In this document: in pieces, positions 1 through 5,124 of the stretch
Layout: every line of letters starts with the position of its first letter
Position numbering within the stretch: the stretch's first letter is position 1
Origin: a virus
Lineage: Duplodnaviria; Heunggongvirae; Uroviricota; Caudoviricetes
Strand: one strand, 5' to 3'
DNA: 5,124 nucleotides
Virus record (IMG/VR): IMGVR_UViG_2695420708_000002
Notes under the pieces: generated by a model
The model's input: only the letters and a program-made list of their open reading frames with translations
What the model was told of the DNA's origin: nothing
The model's database searches: none
Program-made: the position numbers and the translations under genes

Positions 1-34
1 CCTCAAAAACACCATCATACACTAAATCAGTAAG

Positions 35-63
35 TTGGCAGCATCACCAAAATTGGTTATGCT
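35..63 (+). promoter_or_regulatory. Candidate sigma70 promoter, possibly a late (pR'-like) promoter
   Basis: TTGGCA at 35-40, 17-nt spacer, TATGCT at 58-63, upstream of a terminator hairpin and the lysis cassette. Read by eye only; no scoring matrix applied. Confidence 0.25.
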
Positions 64-93
64 GTTAAGAGTGGTTACTTCGTCACACAGCTT

Positions 94-126
94 AAACCCG
101 CCGTCGAGCGGGTTTTTCCATTTTTT
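94..126 (+). terminator. Rho-independent terminator (tR'-like) upstream of the holin gene
   Basis: Stem AAACCCGC (94-101) / GCGGGTTT (108-115) with 6-nt loop, followed by TTTTT-CCA-TTTTTT. The position before S matches lambdoid late-operon organisation where Q antitermination acts. Confidence 0.5.
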
Positions 127-238
127 GAGTCTCGATATTAGCTGATAACCCAATACCTGAGTTATTCACTGACTCCGAGTCTGTTACGTTTCGTAGTATT
201 CCCTCAATTTACACCCGCTTTGTCTGCGAGGTGGGGTT

Positions 239-454
239 ATGAAATCCATGGATAAGTTAACAACGGGTGTCGCCTATGGCACCTCAGCAGGTAGTGCCGG
301 GTACTGGTTTTTACAGCTGCTAGATAAAGTCACGCCCTCACAGTGGGCGGCAATTGGAGTGCTGGGTAGCCTGGTATTTGGCCTGCTGACGTACCTGACA
401 AACCTTTATTTCAAGATTAAAGAAGATAAGCGCAAGGCTGCGAGAGGTGGATAA
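239..454 (+). CDS. S: Class II holin, phage 21 S-type pinholin/antiholin (71 aa; internal start at 248 gives the 68-aa form)
   Basis: 71-aa ORF beginning MKSMDK (dual-start motif, Met1 and Met4), two hydrophobic segments, charged C-terminal tail; SD GAGGTG at 228-233. Strong resemblance to remembered phage 21 S21 / E. coli essD. Stop TAA overlaps the endolysin ATG (TAATG at 452-456). Confidence 0.9.
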
Positions 455-951
455 TGCCTCCATCATTACGAAAAGCTGTTGCTGCTGCTATTGGTGGCGG
501 GGCTATTGCTATAGCATCTGTGTTAATCACTGGCCCAGGTGGTAACGATGGTCTGGAAGGTGTGAGACATAATCCTTACAAAGACATAGTTGGTGTATGG
601 ACTGTATGTTACGGGCATACAGGAAAAGACATCATTCCCGGTAAAACGTATACCGAAGCAGAGTGCAAAGCCCTCCTGAATAAAGACCTTGCCACTGTCG
701 CCAGACAAATTAACCCGTACATCAAAGTCGATATACCGGAAACAACGCGCTGCGCTCTTTACTCGTTCGTCTACAACGTGGGTGCTGGCAATTTCAGAAC
801 ATCGACGCTTCTTCGCAAAATAAACCAGGGTGATATTAAAGGCGCATGTGATCAGCTACGGCGCTGGACATACGCTGGCGGTAATCAATGGAAAGGACTG
901 ATGACTCGCCGTGAGATTGAGCGTGAAGTCTGTTTGTGGGGGAAACAATGA
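454..951 (+). CDS. R: SAR endolysin (lysozyme, T4 lysozyme-like glycoside hydrolase family 24), phage 21 R-type
   Basis: 165 aa; N-terminal Gly/Ala-rich signal-anchor-release segment [20 protein letters not shown]; catalytic E35/D44/T50 in GLEGV...YKDIVGVWT; near-identical to remembered R21 / rrrD. Stop TGA overlaps the Rz ATG (ATGA at 948-951). Confidence 0.92.
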
Positions 952-1406
952 GCAGAGTAACCGCGATTATCTCCGCTCTGGTTATCTGCATCATCGTCTG
1001 CCTGTCATTGGCTGTTAATCATTACCGTGATAACGCAATCGCCTACAAAGAGCAGCGCGATAACAAGGCCAGTGAACTGGAGAAGGCGAACGCCACCATC
1101 GCTGACATGCGGAAGCGTCAACGTGATGTAGCAGAACTCGACGCAAGATACATAAAGGAGCTTGCTGATGCTAACGCGACTATCGAAAGTCTCCGTGCTG
1201 ATGTTTCTGCTGGGCGTAAGCGCCTGCAAGTCGCCGCCACCTGTGCAAAGTCAACGACCGGAGCCAGCGGCATGGGCGATGGAGAAAGCCCAGGACTTAC
1301 AGCAGATGCTGAACTCAATTATTACCGTCTCCGAAGTGGAATCGACAAGATAACCGCGCAGGTTAACTACCTGCAGGAATACATCAGGACGCAATGCCTG
1401 AAATAA
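948..1406 (+). CDS. Rz: Rz inner-membrane spanin (i-spanin)
   Basis: ATG at 948 preceded by GGGGGA; N-terminal TMD ([20 protein letters not shown]) then a coiled-coil-like charged periplasmic domain; sits directly after the endolysin. The track ORF begins at an upstream in-frame GTG (936); ATG 948 is preferred. Confidence 0.85.
1168..1353 (+). CDS. Rz1: Rz1 outer-membrane lipoprotein spanin (o-spanin), embedded in the +1 frame of Rz
   Basis: ATG at 1168 with SD AAGGAG (1155-1160) and 7-nt spacer inside Rz coding sequence; signal peptide [20 protein letters not shown] with lipobox-like VSAC; Pro-rich mature part ([16 protein letters not shown]). The track ORF starts 6 nt earlier at TTG 1162. 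Confidence 0.8.
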
Positions 1407-1438
1407 TTTTTTTGCAAATCACAAAGTCCATTTAATGA

Positions 1439-1460
1439 GCCTCGCGATGCGGGGCTTTTT
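1439..1460 (+). terminator. Rho-independent terminator after the lysis cassette
   Basis: GCCTCGC (1439-1445) / GCGGGGC (1449-1455), one G-U pair, 3-nt loop, then TTTTT (1456-1460). Confidence 0.45.
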
Positions 1461-1607
1461 GCAATAAATGCGTACCGCAACGCATGTTTTTTACACCGAA
1501 CCTGCCCCTTTGGAATGGGCCTTTGAGGATACCAGTTAGTGCTGGCGAGCCTCGGTGGGCTGGTTTCCTGTGCGGCAAAGGTTCATTTCAAAGAGTAGGT
1601 ACACGCT

Positions 1608-2105
1608 ATGAAATCATTAACCCTCTTCAATCAACCAATTCGTATCGGTGAAGATGGCATGATCTGCCTCACTGATATGTGGAAAGCCAGTGGTAAAAGT
1701 GAATCTGAATCGCCTTACCACTACCTGCGAAACAAGCAGACCAAAGAGTTCTTAGCCGAGCTGGAGAAAAACCACGAATCTGTGGTTTTTACTGAGCGCG
1801 GTGTACACGGTGGAACATATGGCGGGAAGTTTGTTGCTTACGATTATGCGGCTTGGTTAAACCCCGGGTTCAAGTACGCGGCCTATAAAGTCCTCGATGA
1901 CTACTTCACCGGAGAACTTCAGCATCGCAACAGCTTAAGTGCGCAGCTCAACATGAAATGTCATGAATTTGACCAGAAGAAAGACATGGCGAGCTTCTGC
2001 GGACAAGGGCTGGCAGCATGGCGCTATACGAAGCCAGTGTTGGTCGCTGAGATTAACTCCCTGGCTAACCAGCTGCAGATTACGATCCCCGGGCTTCCGG
2101 GATGA
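1608..2105 (+). CDS. KilA-N domain-containing phage protein (putative DNA-binding / antirepressor-like), 165 aa
   Basis: The N-terminal ~100 aa follow the remembered KilA-N pattern (IRIGEDGMICLTDMWKASGK ... LRNKQTKEFLAELE ... GGTYGG ... AYDYAAWLNPGFKYAAYKVL). Family assignment is from memory, not a profile search. Stop TGA overlaps the next ATG (ATGA at 2102-2105). Confidence 0.6.
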   Translation: MKSLTLFNQPIRIGEDGMICLTDMWKASGKSESESPYHYLRNKQTKEFLAELEKNHESVVFTERGVHGGTYGGKFVAYDYAAWLNPGFKYAAYKVLDDYFTGELQHRNSLSAQLNMKCHEFDQKKDMASFCGQGLAAWRYTKPVLVAEINSLANQLQITIPGLPG

Positions 2106-2359
2106 GTGATCATGTTATTGAATGCGCCTCCAGAGCGGGGCGCGACTTCTCAGAGTTCATGAAAGGCGAGAAGGGCATGATGGAAGCATTGGCCTCGGTG
2201 GATGAGTTTGGCGAGCAGCTGCGCCTCAACGGCTGTGTCAATCATCACTTTGTTAGCTACATGATGCGGAACTCGATCATGCAGGCATTCATGGACATGG
2301 CAAAAGCCGAGAGGAAAGAAGAGCGCCGGCGTAAGCGAGCGGAAGCAAAAGCGAAGTAG
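2102..2359 (+). CDS. Hypothetical small protein (85 aa), Met-rich with a basic Lys/Arg C-terminal tail; translationally coupled to the KilA-N gene
   Basis: ATGA start/stop overlap with the upstream gene; C8, C45, H48, H49 could form a metal site; C-terminus KAERKEERRRKRAEAKAK. No recognisable family. Confidence 0.5.
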   Translation: MSDHVIECASRAGRDFSEFMKGEKGMMEALASVDEFGEQLRLNGCVNHHFVSYMMRNSIMQAFMDMAKAERKEERRRKRAEAKAK

Positions 2360-2367
2360 CCATTACA

Positions 2368-2389
2368 AAGCCCATTTACGGGTGGGCTT
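2368..2389. other. Hairpin just downstream of the 85-aa gene (possible terminator or RNA structure)
   Basis: AAGCCCA (2368-2374) / TGGGCTT (2383-2389) with 8-nt loop, preceded by CATTACAAAG; no strong T-run follows, so terminator function is uncertain. Confidence 0.3.
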
Positions 2390-2656
2390 GATAATGAAAC
2401 CGGAATTTATTCTGGGCCACCAGTTAACGGCAGTACCACGAAACAACCCAAGCCAGTAAGTGGGGAAATAACACCGGCAGCCACTGAAAGATGAACCTCC
2501 TGCCTTATGGCAAAAAAGATTCTTTGTGGTGGCGGACTGATGGAAAGACATCCCAATTTCAGCCAAACATTGAAGGAGTTGTTATGTCAGCAGAAGGTTT
2601 CAATAACCCATCAAAATTCCGGGATGAGTGGGATAGCAGCGTAAAGAGTAAGTGAT

Positions 2657-2784
2657 GCCATCACAAAAGCCATTCCCTACAGAGTGGCTTTGATAATGGC
2701 TTATACCCTACACGGGATAACTTAACTGATATCCCTTTTAAAGGATAAAGGTATTCAAGCCTGACACATCATGCGCTGTATCGT
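2657..2784 (+). repeat. Copy 1 of a 128-bp direct repeat; ends exactly at the IS2 left terminus
   Basis: Matches 3621-3748 with about 4 mismatches by eye. Contains an imperfect hairpin (AAAGCCA...TGGCTTT, 2665-2695) and the sequence GATAATGGCTTATACCCTACACGGGATAACTTAACTGATATCCC. Confidence 0.8.
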
Positions 2785-3057
2785 TAGACTGGCCCCCTGA
2801 ATCTCCAGACAACCAGTATCACTTAAATAAGTGATAGTCTTAATACTAGTTTTTAGACTAGTCATTGGAGTACAGATGATTGATGTCTTAGGGCCGGAGA
2901 AACGCAGACGGCGTACCACACAGGAAAAGATCGCAATTGTTCAGCAGAGCTTTGAACCGGGGATGACGGTCTCCCTCGTTGCCCGGCAACATGGTGTAGC
3001 AGCCAGCCAGTTATTTCTCTGGCGTAAGCAATACCAGGAAGGAAGTCTTACTGCTGT
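2785..3057 (+). mobile_element. IS2 (IS3 family) remnant: left terminal inverted repeat plus the 5' part of orfA; the rest of the element is deleted
   Basis: Starts TAGACTGGCCCCCTGAATCTCCAGACAACC..., matching the remembered IS2 left end; continues into insC coding sequence; similarity stops abruptly after CTGCTGT at 3057 (IS2 is about 1.3 kb when complete). Confidence 0.85.
2876..3057 (+). pseudogene. insC: Truncated IS2 transposase orfA (InsC), N-terminal ~60 codons only
   Basis: [61 protein letters not shown] matches the remembered InsC N-terminus (HTH region). After 3057 the reading runs into unrelated Rz-derived sequence and stops at 3085. Confidence 0.8.
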
Positions 3058-3420
3058 AAGCGCGACAAAAACGCAAGAGAACTGAAGCTGGCGAACGCAA
3101 CCATTACTGACATGCAGCAGCGCCAGCGTGATGCTGATGCACTCGATGCTAAATACACGAAGGAGTTAGCTGATGCGAAAGCTGAAAATGATGCTCTTCG
3201 GCGCAAGCTTGATAATGGTGGTCGGGTGCTCGTCAAAGGAAAATGCCCTGTGCCATCCTCAGCCGAAACCTCCAGCGCCTCCGGCATGGGCAATGATGCC
3301 ACCGTCGAACTCTCTCCAGTTGCTGGACGAAACGTTCTCGGTATCCGGGACGGAATTATCCGCGACCAAACAGCACTGAGAACGCTTCAGGAATACATCA
3401 GGACGCAATGCCTTCGATGA
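3058..3420 (+). pseudogene. Rz: Second Rz (lambda-type i-spanin), 5'-truncated at the IS2 junction; N-terminal TMD missing
   Basis: In-frame translation from 3058 gives [51 protein letters not shown]..., close to remembered lambda Rz from about residue 37 on; C-terminus [11 protein letters not shown] parallels the first Rz ([11 protein letters not shown]). No start codon or TMD remains. Confidence 0.8.
3173..3379 (+). CDS. Rz1: Second Rz1 (lambda-type o-spanin lipoprotein), apparently intact, embedded in the truncated Rz
   Basis: ATG 3173 with SD AAGGAG (3160-3165) and 7-nt spacer; [21 protein letters not shown]... with lipobox VVGC; Pro-rich [11 protein letters not shown]; resembles remembered lambda Rz1. 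Likely non-functional in lysis without its Rz partner. Confidence 0.7.
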
Positions 3421-3594
3421 TAGCGATAATTTTACTCATCATCCTTCACATCTGGCTCTGTAGACAGGGTGGTGCTCACTTCTGGAGTGAATCCAGATTA
3501 AACATCTCATTGCTGATGCTTGATATTGAGCATTTTGCGCGCGGTAAGGGGCTGCGTTGAGATAAGAGCCAGTCATTACAAATACCAGGATTTA

Positions 3595-3617
3595 GCCTCG
3601 CATTCGCGGGGCTTTTT
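3595..3617 (+). terminator. Rho-independent terminator downstream of the second Rz/Rz1
   Basis: GCCTCGC (3595-3601) / GCGGGGC (3606-3612), loop ATTC, then TTTTT (3613-3617); same stem sequence as the terminator at 1439-1460. Confidence 0.45.
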
Positions 3618-3620
3618 ATT

Positions 3621-3748
3621 GCCATTACAAAAGCCACTTCCTACAGAGTGGCTTTGATAATGGCTTATACCCTACACGGGATAACTTAACTGATATCCCT
3701 TTTAACGGATAAAGGTATTCAAGCCTGACACATCATGCGCTGTATCGT
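3621..3748 (+). repeat. Copy 2 of the 128-bp direct repeat; uninterrupted, continues into unique sequence
   Basis: Matches 2657-2784 with about 4 mismatches by eye; begins right after the terminator T-tract. Confidence 0.8.
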
Positions 3749-4017
3749 CGCCGTATTCCCGTATTAACCATGACCGTAGCCCGACGGGGAACTCCTTCTG
3801 CGCGAGTGTGCGGGAATAATCAAAAACGATGCACACCGGGTTTTTACCGCGTTTATGGTTCGCGGGTTTGTCCCTCATGCTCGCCAGTCCTGTGCGGGGG
3901 TGGAAGAAACAGGACACTTACACTGATTCTTGTGGGTACGATGCTATTCCTTTCTGGATTATCCCGATGTCATTCATGCAGGGCGCTGTATCAGACGTTC
4001 GTCATGGCTGTCAGGCT

Positions 4018-4132
4018 GACGGGTCCTCCCGGTGGGGTGGCCTGCCACGGGGCGGGAGCGGCGCGGAAAAAGGCTAGTTTTTGAAATTTCATTCGTCATC
4101 ACCACTACTGTAATGGATTGATATTACAGTGG
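4018..4132 (+). promoter_or_regulatory. Candidate cos site: cosQ/cosN-like segment (cosN about 4050-4061) and start of cosB with an IHF-like site
   Basis: GACGGGTCCTCCCGGTG...CCACG GGGCGGGAGCGG CGCGG resembles the remembered lambda right-end/cosN junction, lying 186 bp before the small terminase ATG (about 190 bp in lambda). IHF-like TAATGGATTGATA (4111-4123) sits inside a 10-bp inverted repeat (4105-4114 / 4123-4132); AT-rich tract 4131-4180. Confidence 0.4.
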
Positions 4133-4235: not shown

Positions 4236-4730
4236 ATGGATCGAGAGTTAAAAAATCTGACGCTGAATATCAGTCAACTGGCGGCACTGTCAGGTGTACA
4301 TCGCCAGACTGCTGCGGCAAGGCTGCAAAATCTACCCGTTGCAGGGGGGCATGAAAGCAACCTCAAGCTTTATCGGGTGGTTGATATTGTGTCGGCATTT
4401 CTGGCATTACCACCGCCGGTTGCAGAAGGCGAAATGGACGCGCATGAGCGCAAAGCCTGGTATCAGTCTGAACGTGAGCGTCTTAAGTTCGAACAGGAAA
4501 CGGCACAACTCATTCCGGCCAGTGATGTCAGACGGGAGTTTGCCATCTGGGCAAAAGCGGTCGTGCAGGTGCTGGAGACATTACCGGATATTCTTGAACG
4601 TGACTGCGGTCTGCAGCCTGCCGCTGTGAGCCGTGTTCAGTCCATTATTGATGATCTGCGCGATCAGATAGCCCTGCGGGTGACTGAAGCAGGTGCGGAT
4701 GATGAGGAGGAATTACAGCAGGAGGAGTAA
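4236..4730 (+). CDS. Terminase small subunit (Nu1-like, putative), 164 aa
   Basis: First gene after the cos-like site; SD GGAG at 4227-4230; N-terminal HTH-like NISQLAALSGVHRQTAAARL; acidic tail DDEEELQQEE; stop overlaps the next ATG (TAATG at 4728-4732). Function inferred from position and architecture, not from recognised sequence identity. Confidence 0.55.
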   Translation: MDRELKNLTLNISQLAALSGVHRQTAAARLQNLPVAGGHESNLKLYRVVDIVSAFLALPPPVAEGEMDAHERKAWYQSERERLKFEQETAQLIPASDVRREFAIWAKAVVQVLETLPDILERDCGLQPAAVSRVQSIIDDLRDQIALRVTEAGADDEEELQQEE

Positions 4731-5095
4731 TGCTGAATCAGGAAACCGCAAAGGCAGCACGAACCGATTCAGGTTATATCCTTCGCGCACCGAGACGAAT
4801 GCGGGTTGCTGATGCCGTTGCTCAGTATATGCGGGTGCCCATGGGGGCAGGGAACTCAGTCCCGTGGGATCCGCTGGTGGCACCGTATGTTATTGAGCCG
4901 ATGAACTGCCTGGCCTCGCGTGAATACGACGCAGTGATATTTGTTGGCCCGGCACGAACCGGCAAGACTATCGGCCTGATTGACGGCTGGGTGATTTACA
5001 ACGTGATTTGCGATCCTGCTGATATGCTGATTATTCAGATGACGGAGGAAAAAGCCCGCGAACACTCCAAAAAACGACTCGCCAGAATGAGGTAG
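4730..5095 (+). CDS. Terminase large subunit (GpA-like ATPase), N-terminal 121 codons ending at an in-frame TAG; possible pseudogene
   Basis: Walker A P-loop VGPARTGKT at the position expected for GpA-family terminases; translationally coupled to the small subunit. The ORF stops at TAG 5093-5095, far short of the ~640 aa expected; the same frame stays open to the window end. Confidence 0.55.
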   Translation: MLNQETAKAARTDSGYILRAPRRMRVADAVAQYMRVPMGAGNSVPWDPLVAPYVIEPMNCLASREYDAVIFVGPARTGKTIGLIDGWVIYNVICDPADMLIIQMTEEKAREHSKKRLARMR

Positions 5096-5124
5096 CCTGA
5101 GTTTAACGGACACTCCTTCCTGAA

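Follow-up and report, generated by a model that had tools for sequence, protein, structure and literature searches.

Layout of the locus and extent of the repeat

The window (the whole 5,124-nt stretch of DNA analysed here) carries two copies of a non-coding repeat, each lying behind lysis genes of a different phage lineage. The first copy belongs to a lineage with the gene order S-R-Rz_A-hkbK-hkbL, whose relatives add a lambda-type cos and Nu1; the second belongs to an Ayreon/mEp460/TF5-like lineage with a DUF1441 terminase. The features referred to below are the following.

2359-2398, + strand: partial third copy, an H1-type hairpin of the Stx-phage variant (H1 covariance model R1, 52.7 bits; fold, -18.3 kcal/mol)
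2397-2655, + strand: small cassette with a 54-aa ORF (2491-2655), between two H1 hairpins
2656-2784, + strand: repeat copy 1 (repeat search, alignment, fold; R1, 58.8 bits), with H1 at 2657-2700, core at 2695-2749, H2 at 2714-2735 and TTTT at 2736-2739; the last 35 nt belong to the downstream block, which IS2 interrupts
2785-3057, + strand: IS2 left-end fragment, nt 1-273, internally truncated; it leaves the IS2 of contig L143 exactly after 3057
3058-3059, no strand: illegitimate joint of IS2 nt 273, an extra A, and Rz_B from about nt 107 (three-way comparison)
3059-3420, + strand: 3' two-thirds of Rz_B (Pfam Phage_lysis, E=1.3e-22; repeat family D2); an Rz1-like ORF is embedded at 3173-3379
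3408-3560, + strand: 50-aa ORF; Sf6 (gene 65), TF5 and Ayreon have a short CDS annotated behind Rz in the equivalent DNA
3594-3617, + strand: canonical intrinsic terminator T1, an 8-bp G+C stem followed by TTTTTATT (terminator scan, fold)
3620-3748, + strand: repeat copy 2, intact (repeat search, alignment, fold, covariation; R1, 60.0 bits), with H1 at 3621-3664, core at 3659-3713, H2 (GGGATA/TATCCC) at 3678-3699, TTTT at 3700-3703 and GGATAAA at 3707-3713; its 3' part, after the core, is the beginning of the downstream block
3714-3915, no strand: conserved non-coding block beyond the repeat, common to 4A7, Stx phages and others
4019-4061, + strand: cosQ/cosN-like sequence (ACGGGTCCT ... ACGGGGCGGGAGCGG), identified by eye against L143 upstream of its Nu1-like gene
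4236-4730, + strand: DUF1441 small terminase gene of the B-type packaging module (Pfam PF07278, E=2.7e-41)

Positions 3059-3260 are 100% identical to the Rz gene of E. coli CFSAN029787, and T1 sits immediately 5' of copy 2. The homologue of the DUF1441 gene in 569R4 is annotated as terminase small subunit, and the Ayreon record, which carries the B module, terminates at the position equivalent to about 4210 of the window. The region upstream of the Nu1-like gene of L143, against which the cos-like sequence was recognised, is one that we take to be cos from its likeness to lambda cosQ/cosN.

The longest repeat found in the window by the repeat search is a single 129-nt family (2656-2784 and 3620-3748, 97% identity), the runner-up being the similarity of the two Rz genes (124 nt, 77%). 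Pairwise alignment gave four mismatches between the copies and 16 dissimilar nucleotides on either side, in agreement with the initial annotation, which had described a near-identical direct repeat of 128 bp with about four mismatches. The copies are spaced 964 bp apart. Copy 1 ends in ...GCTGTATCGT and is followed from 2785 by TAGACTGGCCCCC, the IS2 left end; since positions 2860-3057 are 99.5% identical to sequence annotated as "insertion sequence:IS2" or InsC, the claim that this copy stops at an IS2 terminus stands. So does the claim that copy 2 runs on toward cos, through a non-coding stretch to the cos-like sequence at about 4019-4061 (by eye). What does not hold is the treatment of the 128/129-bp stretch as a natural unit, because its 3' end merely marks the point of IS2 insertion and conservation reaches to about 3915 in other phages. 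The repeat unit is evidently a composite, made up of a variable hairpin (H1), an invariant 55-nt core and a part of another block, and it serves as a caution that a repeat ending "precisely at an IS terminus" may be no natural unit at all.

The hairpin of copy 1 has a further relative just upstream. The hairpin at 2359-2398, a member of repeat families D3-D5, lies directly 3' of the stop codon of an 85-aa hkbL-like ORF and is not followed by the core. Between it and copy 1 is the cassette at 2397-2655, which is missing in Stx2a_F349, where hkbL runs straight into H1 and the core; positions 2301-2552 are 93.7% identical to HK97, and parts also match Sf6. With the covariance model, small cassettes flanked by H1-type hairpins were found in the window, Sf6, HK620 and HK97. 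The cassette therefore agrees with the moron concept (Juhala et al. 2000, as quoted in PMC4104026) in being extra DNA that separates features which adjoin each other in a related phage, and it has H1 downstream; the promoter scan reported no promoter-like site in 2397-2500, and the cassette may thus fall short of the full definition of a moron.

Structure, constraint and distribution of the element

H1 had been described as an imperfect hairpin but is a helix of 17-18 bp with covariation. Taken alone it is 92% paired in the alignment, and six of its pairs show changes on both sides. For the structure formed by H1 and H2 together, 94% of cells can pair compared to 38-53% with a slid partner, and the covariation score is 0.292 compared to 0.055-0.113 when slid. 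G.U combinations far exceed A.C combinations (59 vs 5 cells), and this excess, together with the compensatory pairs, shows that H1 folds in the RNA transcribed from the late strand. A compensatory helix with a strand-specific G.U bias is what is expected of a structured cis-acting RNA, and the covariation analysis that had been proposed as a check on RNA structure thus supports the H1 helix. RNAalifold recovered H1 and H2 independently, and fold z-scores were -5 to -7. H2 has 6 bp including three G-C pairs (-8.3 kcal/mol, z = -5.1) and is followed by UUUU; it is invariant except for one variant in which a G-C pair becomes G.U on the + strand. An outer helix UUAU-CC/GG-AUAA around H2 is a possibility only, as its positions are likewise invariant and the core alone folds otherwise.

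The core is constrained in its primary sequence. At 73 loci chosen via the neighbouring hkbM protein, a set of limited divergence in which all proteins are 99-100% identical to the query, nucleotide diversity (pi) of the core was 0.012, compared to 0.069 at third codon positions of hkbM and 0.006 at positions 1+2; the core is thus 5-6 times less variable than the third positions of its neighbour. Identity of the core is 97.5-99% where that of the adjacent block is 82% and that of H1 72-89%, with the proviso that most copies were collected by means of an exact 24-nt pattern, and conservation therefore looks higher than it is. The comparison with hkbM shows the 55-nt core to be under purifying selection.

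The initial annotation had supposed that the element might be conserved among lambdoid phages or else be confined to this genome as a segmental duplication. The former is the case: the element is present in 114 phage records, and it is widespread at the same position between lysis and packaging genes. Of 5426 complete E. coli genomes, 2858 carry it, in up to six places per genome, and its multiple occurrence in many genomes evidently reflects multiple prophages. In O157 genomes it shows 99% identity. In all annotated contexts examined it follows Rz or accessory genes and precedes hkbM, HNH, terminase or cos. H1 and the core are absent from DLP12 and Qin (K-12) and from lambda, with which only the block at 3736-3843 is common; this block corresponds to lambda 46869-46975 and lies in DLP12 between borD and ybcV.

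The flanks of 132 copies fall into 16 families on the left and 11 on the right, in 31 combinations. The element is thus a short conserved stretch with alternative, unrelated modules on either side, which is how a boundary sequence is defined, and it may be regarded as a well-defined conserved junction where late-operon modules swap. Being the same in phages that have little else in common, the core also serves as a homology patch for the exchange of lysis-side and packaging-side modules. Of the three options that had been offered for the element, module boundary is upheld by these flank families and a regulatory or RNA element by structure and constraint, as far as these reach, while a free-standing small RNA is conjectural. 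Overall, the element, which looks like an undescribed functional RNA structure, is compact and very widespread at the lysis/packaging border, with clear RNA covariation and purifying selection and with no entry in Rfam.

A possible role in the late transcript

Our comparisons suggest that the element is most likely an intra-operon terminator or a pair of processing hairpins, as well as a module junction. In the late operon it closes the lysis/accessory part and immediately precedes the packaging genes. In the late mRNA, H1 and H2 would act as an intra-operon terminator or as a 3'-end/processing hairpin pair. RNA polymerase modified by Q would read through them, whereas transcripts that began without antitermination, such as those from accessory Rha/KilA-N cassettes, would be stopped or trimmed before the terminase and head genes. 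The hairpins may also set differential mRNA stability.

The likeness to the intra-operon and moron terminators of lambdoid phages lies in the position of the stem-loop right behind accessory ORFs inside the late operon, and in the cassette at 2397-2655, which like those of morons is bounded by hairpins and absent from a related phage. As with Q-overridden terminators, the element would be read through by antiterminated polymerase, and the depositors of Ayreon labelled H1 as "terminator". Both H1 and H2 form the G+C-rich stem-loop of a Rho-independent terminator; however, neither has the U-run (at least five of eight directly after the stem) in a scan that does report T1. The sequence after H1 is UUUGAUAA, its U-run being UUUGAU, which pairs with the A-run, and that after H2 is UUUUAACG. 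Three of 134 copies have AACA or CACA in place of TTTT but retain GGATAAA, which speaks against the U-run as the conserved feature. The element thus differs from intra-operon terminators in its sub-canonical U-tracts, in conserving 55 nt of primary sequence, far beyond what a terminator needs, and in often lying directly behind another, canonical one: T1 is found directly 5' of H1 in many copies, and a further terminator therefore looks redundant.

Processing is the other function that a hairpin at this place may have. Polycistronic phage mRNAs carry intercistronic processing or stabiliser hairpins, among them the RNase III sites of T7 and the sib site of lambda. H1, a candidate of this kind, resembles these in its intercistronic position on a long phage transcript, in its conservation as RNA and in its stacked helices of 7 bp and 10 bp with a small internal loop, but at 17-18 bp it is at the short end for RNase III. 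A stronger form of this reading, which we advance tentatively, is that H1 and the core constitute an undescribed functional cis- or trans-acting RNA of lambdoid late transcripts, such as an RNase III/E site or a 3'-derived sRNA, that would couple packaging expression to, or insulate it from, lysis and accessory expression. If true, this would be an RNA whose primary sequence is conserved in more than 100 phages and half of E. coli genomes.

The more specific proposal that the element encodes a small regulatory RNA, made as the processed 3' end of an accessory mRNA or excised from the late transcript, we consider doubtful. Its layout would be H1 as the 5' hairpin, the invariant single strand GAUAAUGGCUUAUACCCUACAC as the seed and H2 with UUUU as the terminator, and this succession of hairpin, single strand and hairpin-plus-U fits such an RNA, as do the selection on H1 as + strand RNA and the strong constraint on the primary sequence of the core, which exceeds the needs of a simple terminator. 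Lambdoid prophages carry many sRNAs (PMC4104026, PMC8550237), and the element shares with those of EHEC/EPEC prophages (AgvB, AsxR, PasA-D, Esr41, STnc100) its short, structured, conserved and non-coding character and its fixed lambdoid position. However, AgvB, AsxR and PasA/C/D lie downstream of pR' and upstream of the holin gene, while the element comes after Rz, so it is none of these, and the PasB probe has no match in the window. Neither scanning nor inspection of the two strands found a sigma-70-like promoter within the element or immediately ahead of it, the sole match of the scan (2761-2790) spanning the IS2 junction. The U-tail has only four U. A search of the whole window with Rfam 15 in E-value mode gave only chance-level matches (mir-458, 24.7 bits against a threshold of 59; STnc560, 19.9 against 55), and the Rfam models of AgvB, AsxR, STnc100 and Esr41 likewise gave nothing in the window at the gathering threshold. 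A full-text literature search for the element's sequence strings found no paper that contains them.

It is rather improbable that the core is functionless, a neutral linker or boundary patch of common sequence that frequent recombination of co-infecting lambdoid phages would keep uniform, with hairpins that are incidental. Lambdoid genomes are mosaics. The many unrelated flank families would suit such a patch, and part of the conservation is owed to the exact 24-nt retrieval pattern. Boundary sequences are indeed annotated in phages of the HK620/Sf6 type (bsq2-bsq7, AF547987), and like the element they are short conserved stretches at gene borders between varying modules; bsq4 and bsq6 overlap annotated terminators, as the element may also do. 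Yet the element is not among them: nothing is annotated at its site in Sf6 (38498-38600), bsq2-bsq7 of that record all lie elsewhere, and the HK620 record has no annotated feature at the element. The deletions obtained by experimental evolution of Sf6, which map to the nin region (PMC5630979), are not at the element either. In addition, the bsq sequences are explained by homology for recombination, whereas the element gives direct evidence of selection at the RNA level; the low variability of the core in the protein-chosen set also argues against neutrality, and neutral DNA would not maintain the H1 helix through six double changes with a strong preference of G.U over A.C.

Coding does not explain the conservation. 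A minus-strand ORF of 58-71 aa (3878/3917 to 3702) exists, and it is annotated as "hypothetical protein" by some depositors and, in one genome, by RefSeq; that the 3' part of the repeat is conserved as the end of such a gene is nevertheless very improbable. The three codon positions have nearly equal numbers of variable columns (31, 29 and 27 of 59), about 10 of 32 distinct homologues have a broken or restarted frame, there is no Pfam or NCBIfam match, RefSeq has no gene there in TF5, and the ORF would take in no more of the repeat than its final 47 nt. We therefore rejected the 58-aa ORF (3878 to 3702) as coding. A 9-codon mini-ORF in the core was also rejected: it has no SD, its start codon is buried in H1 and it shows no synonymous bias. 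By the codon-position test, then, none of the ORFs behaves as coding, in keeping with the earlier view that the element holds no convincing one. Comparison with consensus sequences of DnaA and IHF sites gave no convincing match.

IS2 insertion and the joining of two prophage lineages

How the two copies came to lie so near to each other can be read from contigs L143 and L144, which match positions 1-3057 of the window at 99.97% identity. In both, the sequence continues as a complete 1331-bp IS2; behind it come ATCGT and the rest of the element, and then a right end like that of lambda, with a cos-like sequence and a Nu1-like gene. The junctions read ...GCTGTATCGT then TAGACTGG... at the left end of the 1331 bp and ...GGGGCAAATCCA then ATCGTCGCCG at the right, giving a 5-bp duplication of ATCGT. 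A complete element, terminal inverted repeats and a 5-bp target duplication are the features of simple IS2 transposition, and all are present in these contigs. IS2 thus transposed into copy 1, in agreement with the initial annotation, which had IS2 insert into, or recombine at, a conserved non-coding element situated in both contexts between lysis genes and packaging site.

The window retains only nt 1-273 of IS2. Comparison of the window with the IS2 of L143 and with the intact Rz_B of L153 revealed no useful microhomology at the joint between IS2 and Rz_B, and the joint itself had no match in IMG/VR, complete E. coli genomes or phage records. The closeness of the two copies stems from a second event, in which IS2 was truncated and joined without homology to another Rz gene; the copies are 964 bp apart because IS2 was cut after nt 273 and joined to about nt 107 of Rz_B. 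Two prophage lineages are evidently fused in the window, and intact B-type contexts without IS2 are found in TF5, 569R4 and Ayreon. The adjacency of the A and B sequences could be due to a deletion between tandem or nearby prophages, or to recombination between distant ones, and a later deletion after IS2 insertion, as in ordinary prophage decay, could be the route to a spacing of less than 1 kb. Origin of the repeat by simple segmental (tandem) duplication within this genome, with IS2 as a possible agent, would account for the short distance and the IS2 fragment between the copies but is scarcely credible and was rejected, since the copies have unrelated sequence on either side, Rz_A and Rz_B differ by 23% (77% identity over 124 nt) and the copies by 3% (97% identity), the context of copy 1 is found elsewhere with a different packaging module, that of copy 2 is intact in many genomes, and many genomes hold several copies in multiple prophages.

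In our view the repeats are probably orthologous copies of a widespread non-coding lambdoid element, one of them interrupted by IS2 and the two brought together by the fusion of their lineages, with H1 and H2 having a putative role in termination or processing. The repeat itself is routine: an insertion of IS2 followed by an illegitimate deletion stitches the remnants of different prophages together. The possible role of the element is of wider interest. Intra-operon terminators without an assigned role are reported for P22-like late operons, among them predicted ones in phage L (PMC8022706), and if the element insulates the terminase genes from unscheduled transcription it would give such terminators a concrete role, as terminase expressed in a lysogen would cut the cos site of the prophage.

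A direct repeat in the lysis-to-packaging region

The window contains one long direct repeat, identified by repeat search and pairwise alignment, whose copies at 2656-2784 (copy 1) and 3620-3748 (copy 2) span 129 nt and differ by 4 mismatches, much as the near-identical 128-bp pair described in the initial annotation. Similarity between the two copies begins and ends abruptly. The left end of IS2 (TAGACTGGCCCCC...) lies directly 3′ of copy 1, from 2785, exactly at the terminus where that annotation had copy 1 ending, and copy 2 continues into different sequence. The second-longest repeat in the window is that between its two different Rz genes (1054-1177 and 3059-3182, 124 nt, 77%).

Features of the window
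1-48: multi-copy IS end
239-454: holin
454-951: endolysin
936-1406: Rz_A, the Rz gene near copy 1, with embedded Rz1
1608-2105: KilA-N/ORF11CD3 gene, homologue of hkbK
2102-2359: hkbL homologue, 85 aa
2359-2398: hairpin
2397-2655: small cassette with a 54-aa ORF
2656-2784: copy 1
2785-3057: IS2 piece, 273 bp
3059-3420: Rz_B, the Rz gene near copy 2, 3′ two-thirds only
3408-3560: 50-aa ORF
3594-3617: T1, canonical terminator
3620-3748: copy 2
copy 2 to ~4235: non-coding DNA, with a cos-like sequence at ~4019-4061
4236-4730: DUF1441 small terminase
4730-~5090: large terminase, start only, cut by another multi-copy IS end

This arrangement as a whole was found in none of the complete E. coli genomes searched. 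A strong intrinsic terminator (AAACCCGCCGTCGAGCGGGTTTTTCCATTTTTT) lies at 92-125, just upstream of the holin gene; in Rfam it scores 28.8 bits with Trp_leader, below the threshold of 41, and a terminator is annotated in the corresponding methylase-holin spacer of Ayreon. The terminators after Rz_A (1418-1466) and after the 50-aa ORF (3573-3617) are homologous to each other (TCA(T)TACAAA ... GCCTCGC-loop-GCGGGGCTTTTT). The motif CATTACAAA, found 5′ of both canonical terminators, is also the 5′ arm of H1, the first hairpin of the repeated element (short repeat families D3 and D4), and may be a marker of old recombination joints.

IS2 insertion and the joining of two prophage lineages

The junction of copy 1 with IS2 is common to five IMG/VR contigs, two of which (L143 and L144) are 99.97% identical to window 1-3057. 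Beyond 3057 these two carry the remainder of the 1331-bp IS2 and the 5-bp duplication ATCGT, after which the element resumes with sequence homologous to window 3744-3843 (96%), followed by a lambda-like right end, a cos-like sequence and a Nu1-like gene. The complete IS2, its duplication and the rest of the element bear out the earlier proposal that IS2 had inserted into a conserved non-coding element. Copy 1 is thus an ordinary copy of that element hit by a simple IS2 insertion, and for this reason alone does it stop precisely at the IS2 terminus.

The context of copy 2 consists of methylase, S, R, Rz, a short ORF, T1, the element and the DUF1441 terminase, and occurs intact, without IS2, in E. 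coli TF5, phage 569R4, Ayreon and mEp460. In the window, IS2 ends after nt 273 and is followed by one extra A and then by Rz_B from nt ~107, a joint that has no useful microhomology and was not found in IMG/VR, in 5426 complete E. coli genomes or in phage records. Local duplication is excluded as the source of the repeat, since the IS2-interrupted and the intact contexts occur separately. The copies were instead brought together by a second, illegitimate deletion or recombination, which fused remnants of two different prophage lineages. Ordinary events explain the repeat, namely IS2 transposition and then illegitimate deletion between prophage remnants. The joint may lie at a recombination-prone mosaic boundary, because it falls inside the stretch annotated as bsq7 in the Sf6 record (37312-37359, locus L152; Rz nt 70-117) and the TF5 Rz is A-like upstream of the joint point and B-like downstream.

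Several further observations concern insertion sequences. In IMG/VR contig 2693429508_000001 (L142), the locus sequence ends exactly at the equivalent of window 3057, the IS2 truncation point, although the contig is listed as 4887 bp; this may be coincidence or an artefact of contig storage. E. coli S115 (L008, 2770-4098) carries an independent complete IS2 at the equivalent of window ~3489-3497. The insertion point is ~255 bp upstream of where IS2 sits in the window and falls in the same spacer, between lysis genes and cos, of a B-type prophage (one with the DUF1441 terminase); one short non-essential region has therefore received two separate IS2 insertions in different strains. Both ends of the window (1-48 and 5088-5124) are insertion sequence ends and are multi-copy in E. 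coli genomes, the first with as many as 68 places in one genome and the second with as many as 43. The left one is IS1, and the right one, which we take to be IS600, truncates the large terminase gene after ~120 codons. Counting the IS2 fragment, there are three IS elements in 5 kb, as is typical of a prophage in decay within an IS-rich (Shigella-like) genome.

Anatomy and RNA structure of the element

Matches in other phages split the 129 nt into three pieces. Positions 1-44 are H1, with a 7-bp lower helix, a 10-bp upper helix and a loop of 6-8 nt. There are at least three divergent sequence types of this hairpin, with 72-89% identity to the one in the window. Positions 40-94 are a near-invariant core that holds a second hairpin, H2 (GGGAUA, 10-nt loop, UAUCCC), then UUUU and GGAUAAA. 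Positions 95-129 begin a separate non-coding block which in other phages runs on to window ~3915, so the repeat's 3′ limit is no natural boundary. Part of this block (3736-3843, ~108 nt) is 83-84% identical to lambda 46869-46975 (L011 1701-1807) and to DLP12 (L150 3510-3617), where the homologue lies upstream of bor/borD on the side away from Rz, in DLP12 between borD and ybcV; the window has no bor gene. About 500 phage records contain homologues of the block or of adjoining segments of the 370-nt query.

The element has no convincing ORF, as first thought: a minus-strand ORF ending in the third piece was rejected as coding, its variable columns being even over codon positions (31, 29 and 27 of 59) and its frame broken in many homologues. 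The core also contains a 9-codon mini-ORF at 3660-3689 and 2696-2725 (ATG GCT TAT ACC CTA CAC GGG ATA ACT TAA, MAYTLHGIT), with its start buried in the H1 lower stem and its stop in the H2 loop, no Shine-Dalgarno and no synonymous bias in its variation. An attenuator-like arrangement is possible.

Across 31 distinct sequences, 94% of cells pair in the H1 plus H2 structure, against 38-53% with the partner slid. H1 alone is 92% paired, with 6 pairs altered on both sides, so that the covariation analysis suggested in the initial annotation favours an RNA structure, and RNAalifold recovered both hairpins independently. Wobble is strongly one-sided (59 G.U cells against 5 A.C cells), so the helix is selected in + strand RNA, the late-transcript sense; selection in RNA of the other strand, or for a cruciform in DNA, does not fit. 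H2 is near-invariant, its sole natural variant changing G-C to G.U on the + strand.

The primary sequence of the core is constrained as well. Among 73 loci picked via the neighbouring hkbM protein and not via the core, the core has a nucleotide diversity of 0.012, compared with 0.069 for third codon positions of hkbM and 0.006 for its positions 1+2. The core is 97.5-99% identical in copies whose adjacent block is only 82% and H1 72-89% identical, a core figure biased upward because these loci were pattern-selected. RNAalifold also proposes a possible outer helix, UUAU-CC/GG-AUAA, around H2 (3664-3670 with 3707-3712; columns 53-63 with 99-104 of alignment A2), the ends of which roughly coincide with those of the invariant core (3659-3713). 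Its positions are all invariant and the core alone folds otherwise; if it forms, it would explain why GGATAAA is retained despite replacement of TTTT.

A module junction and its possible role

The wider lambdoid conservation anticipated earlier was found: the 129 nt match 114 phage records (among them HK97, HK620, Sf6, mEp phages, epsilon34, many Stx phages and one Klebsiella phage) and 2858 of 5426 complete E. coli genomes, where as many as six sites occur in one genome. In a species-representative scan with 10 hits, exact matches to part of the core turned up in E. albertii and Shimwellia, and no other hit was to a named genome outside E. coli. The element is absent from lambda, DLP12 and Qin. 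Its proposed position between lysis and packaging genes holds in every annotated context examined, with Rz or post-Rz accessory genes (hkbK/hkbL, Rha-family genes, Sf6 gene 66) on the left and hkbM/hkbN plus terminase, an HNH gene plus terminase, or cos on the right.

When the 240 nt on each side of 132 copies are grouped, there are 16 unrelated families on the left and 11 on the right, in 31 combinations, which upholds the suggestion of a module boundary. An H1-only covariance model detects a second, upstream H1-type hairpin in Sf6, HK620 and HK97, and three such hairpins in the window (2359, 2657 and 3621); H1 copies thus bracket small cassettes. Window 2397-2655 is such a cassette, absent in Stx2a_F349, where hkbL directly joins H1 and the core. 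H1 begins 0-5 nt past a stop codon in several contexts, and an ORF begins 10-13 nt past the core in roughly half of the distinct right flanks.

The element is of known kinds: it falls with the moron or intra-operon terminators and with the "boundary sequences" of the Sf6 annotation, of which bsq4 and bsq6 overlap annotated terminators. It is itself annotated in neither the Sf6 nor the HK620 record, no Rfam family fits it, and its sequence strings were not found in a literature string search. Identity with AgvB, AsxR or PasA/C/D was rejected since all lie before the holin, and with PasB since the probe had no match. A promoter scan found no promoter-like sites in or beside the element on either strand.

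The evidence best supports an intra-operon hairpin pair placed where the lysis/accessory part of the late operon meets the packaging part. Such a pair could act as a weak terminator or as a 3′-end/processing structure, which Q-modified polymerase would read through and which would affect transcripts begun without antitermination. H1 was annotated as a terminator by the depositors of Ayreon. Intra-operon terminators of unknown role have been described in phage L and relatives, with attenuation or blocking of spurious transcription suggested (PMC8022706). The U-tracts of H1 and H2 are sub-canonical, UUUU is replaced in a few copies that retain GGAUAAA, a canonical terminator often lies immediately upstream, and constraint at the sequence level exceeds what a terminator needs; a processing site or a 3′-derived small RNA, rather than a plain terminator, is therefore possible. 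For the intra-operon hairpin pair, we infer that a plausible benefit would be to keep the terminase silent in lysogens. The repeat has brought to light a conserved RNA element.
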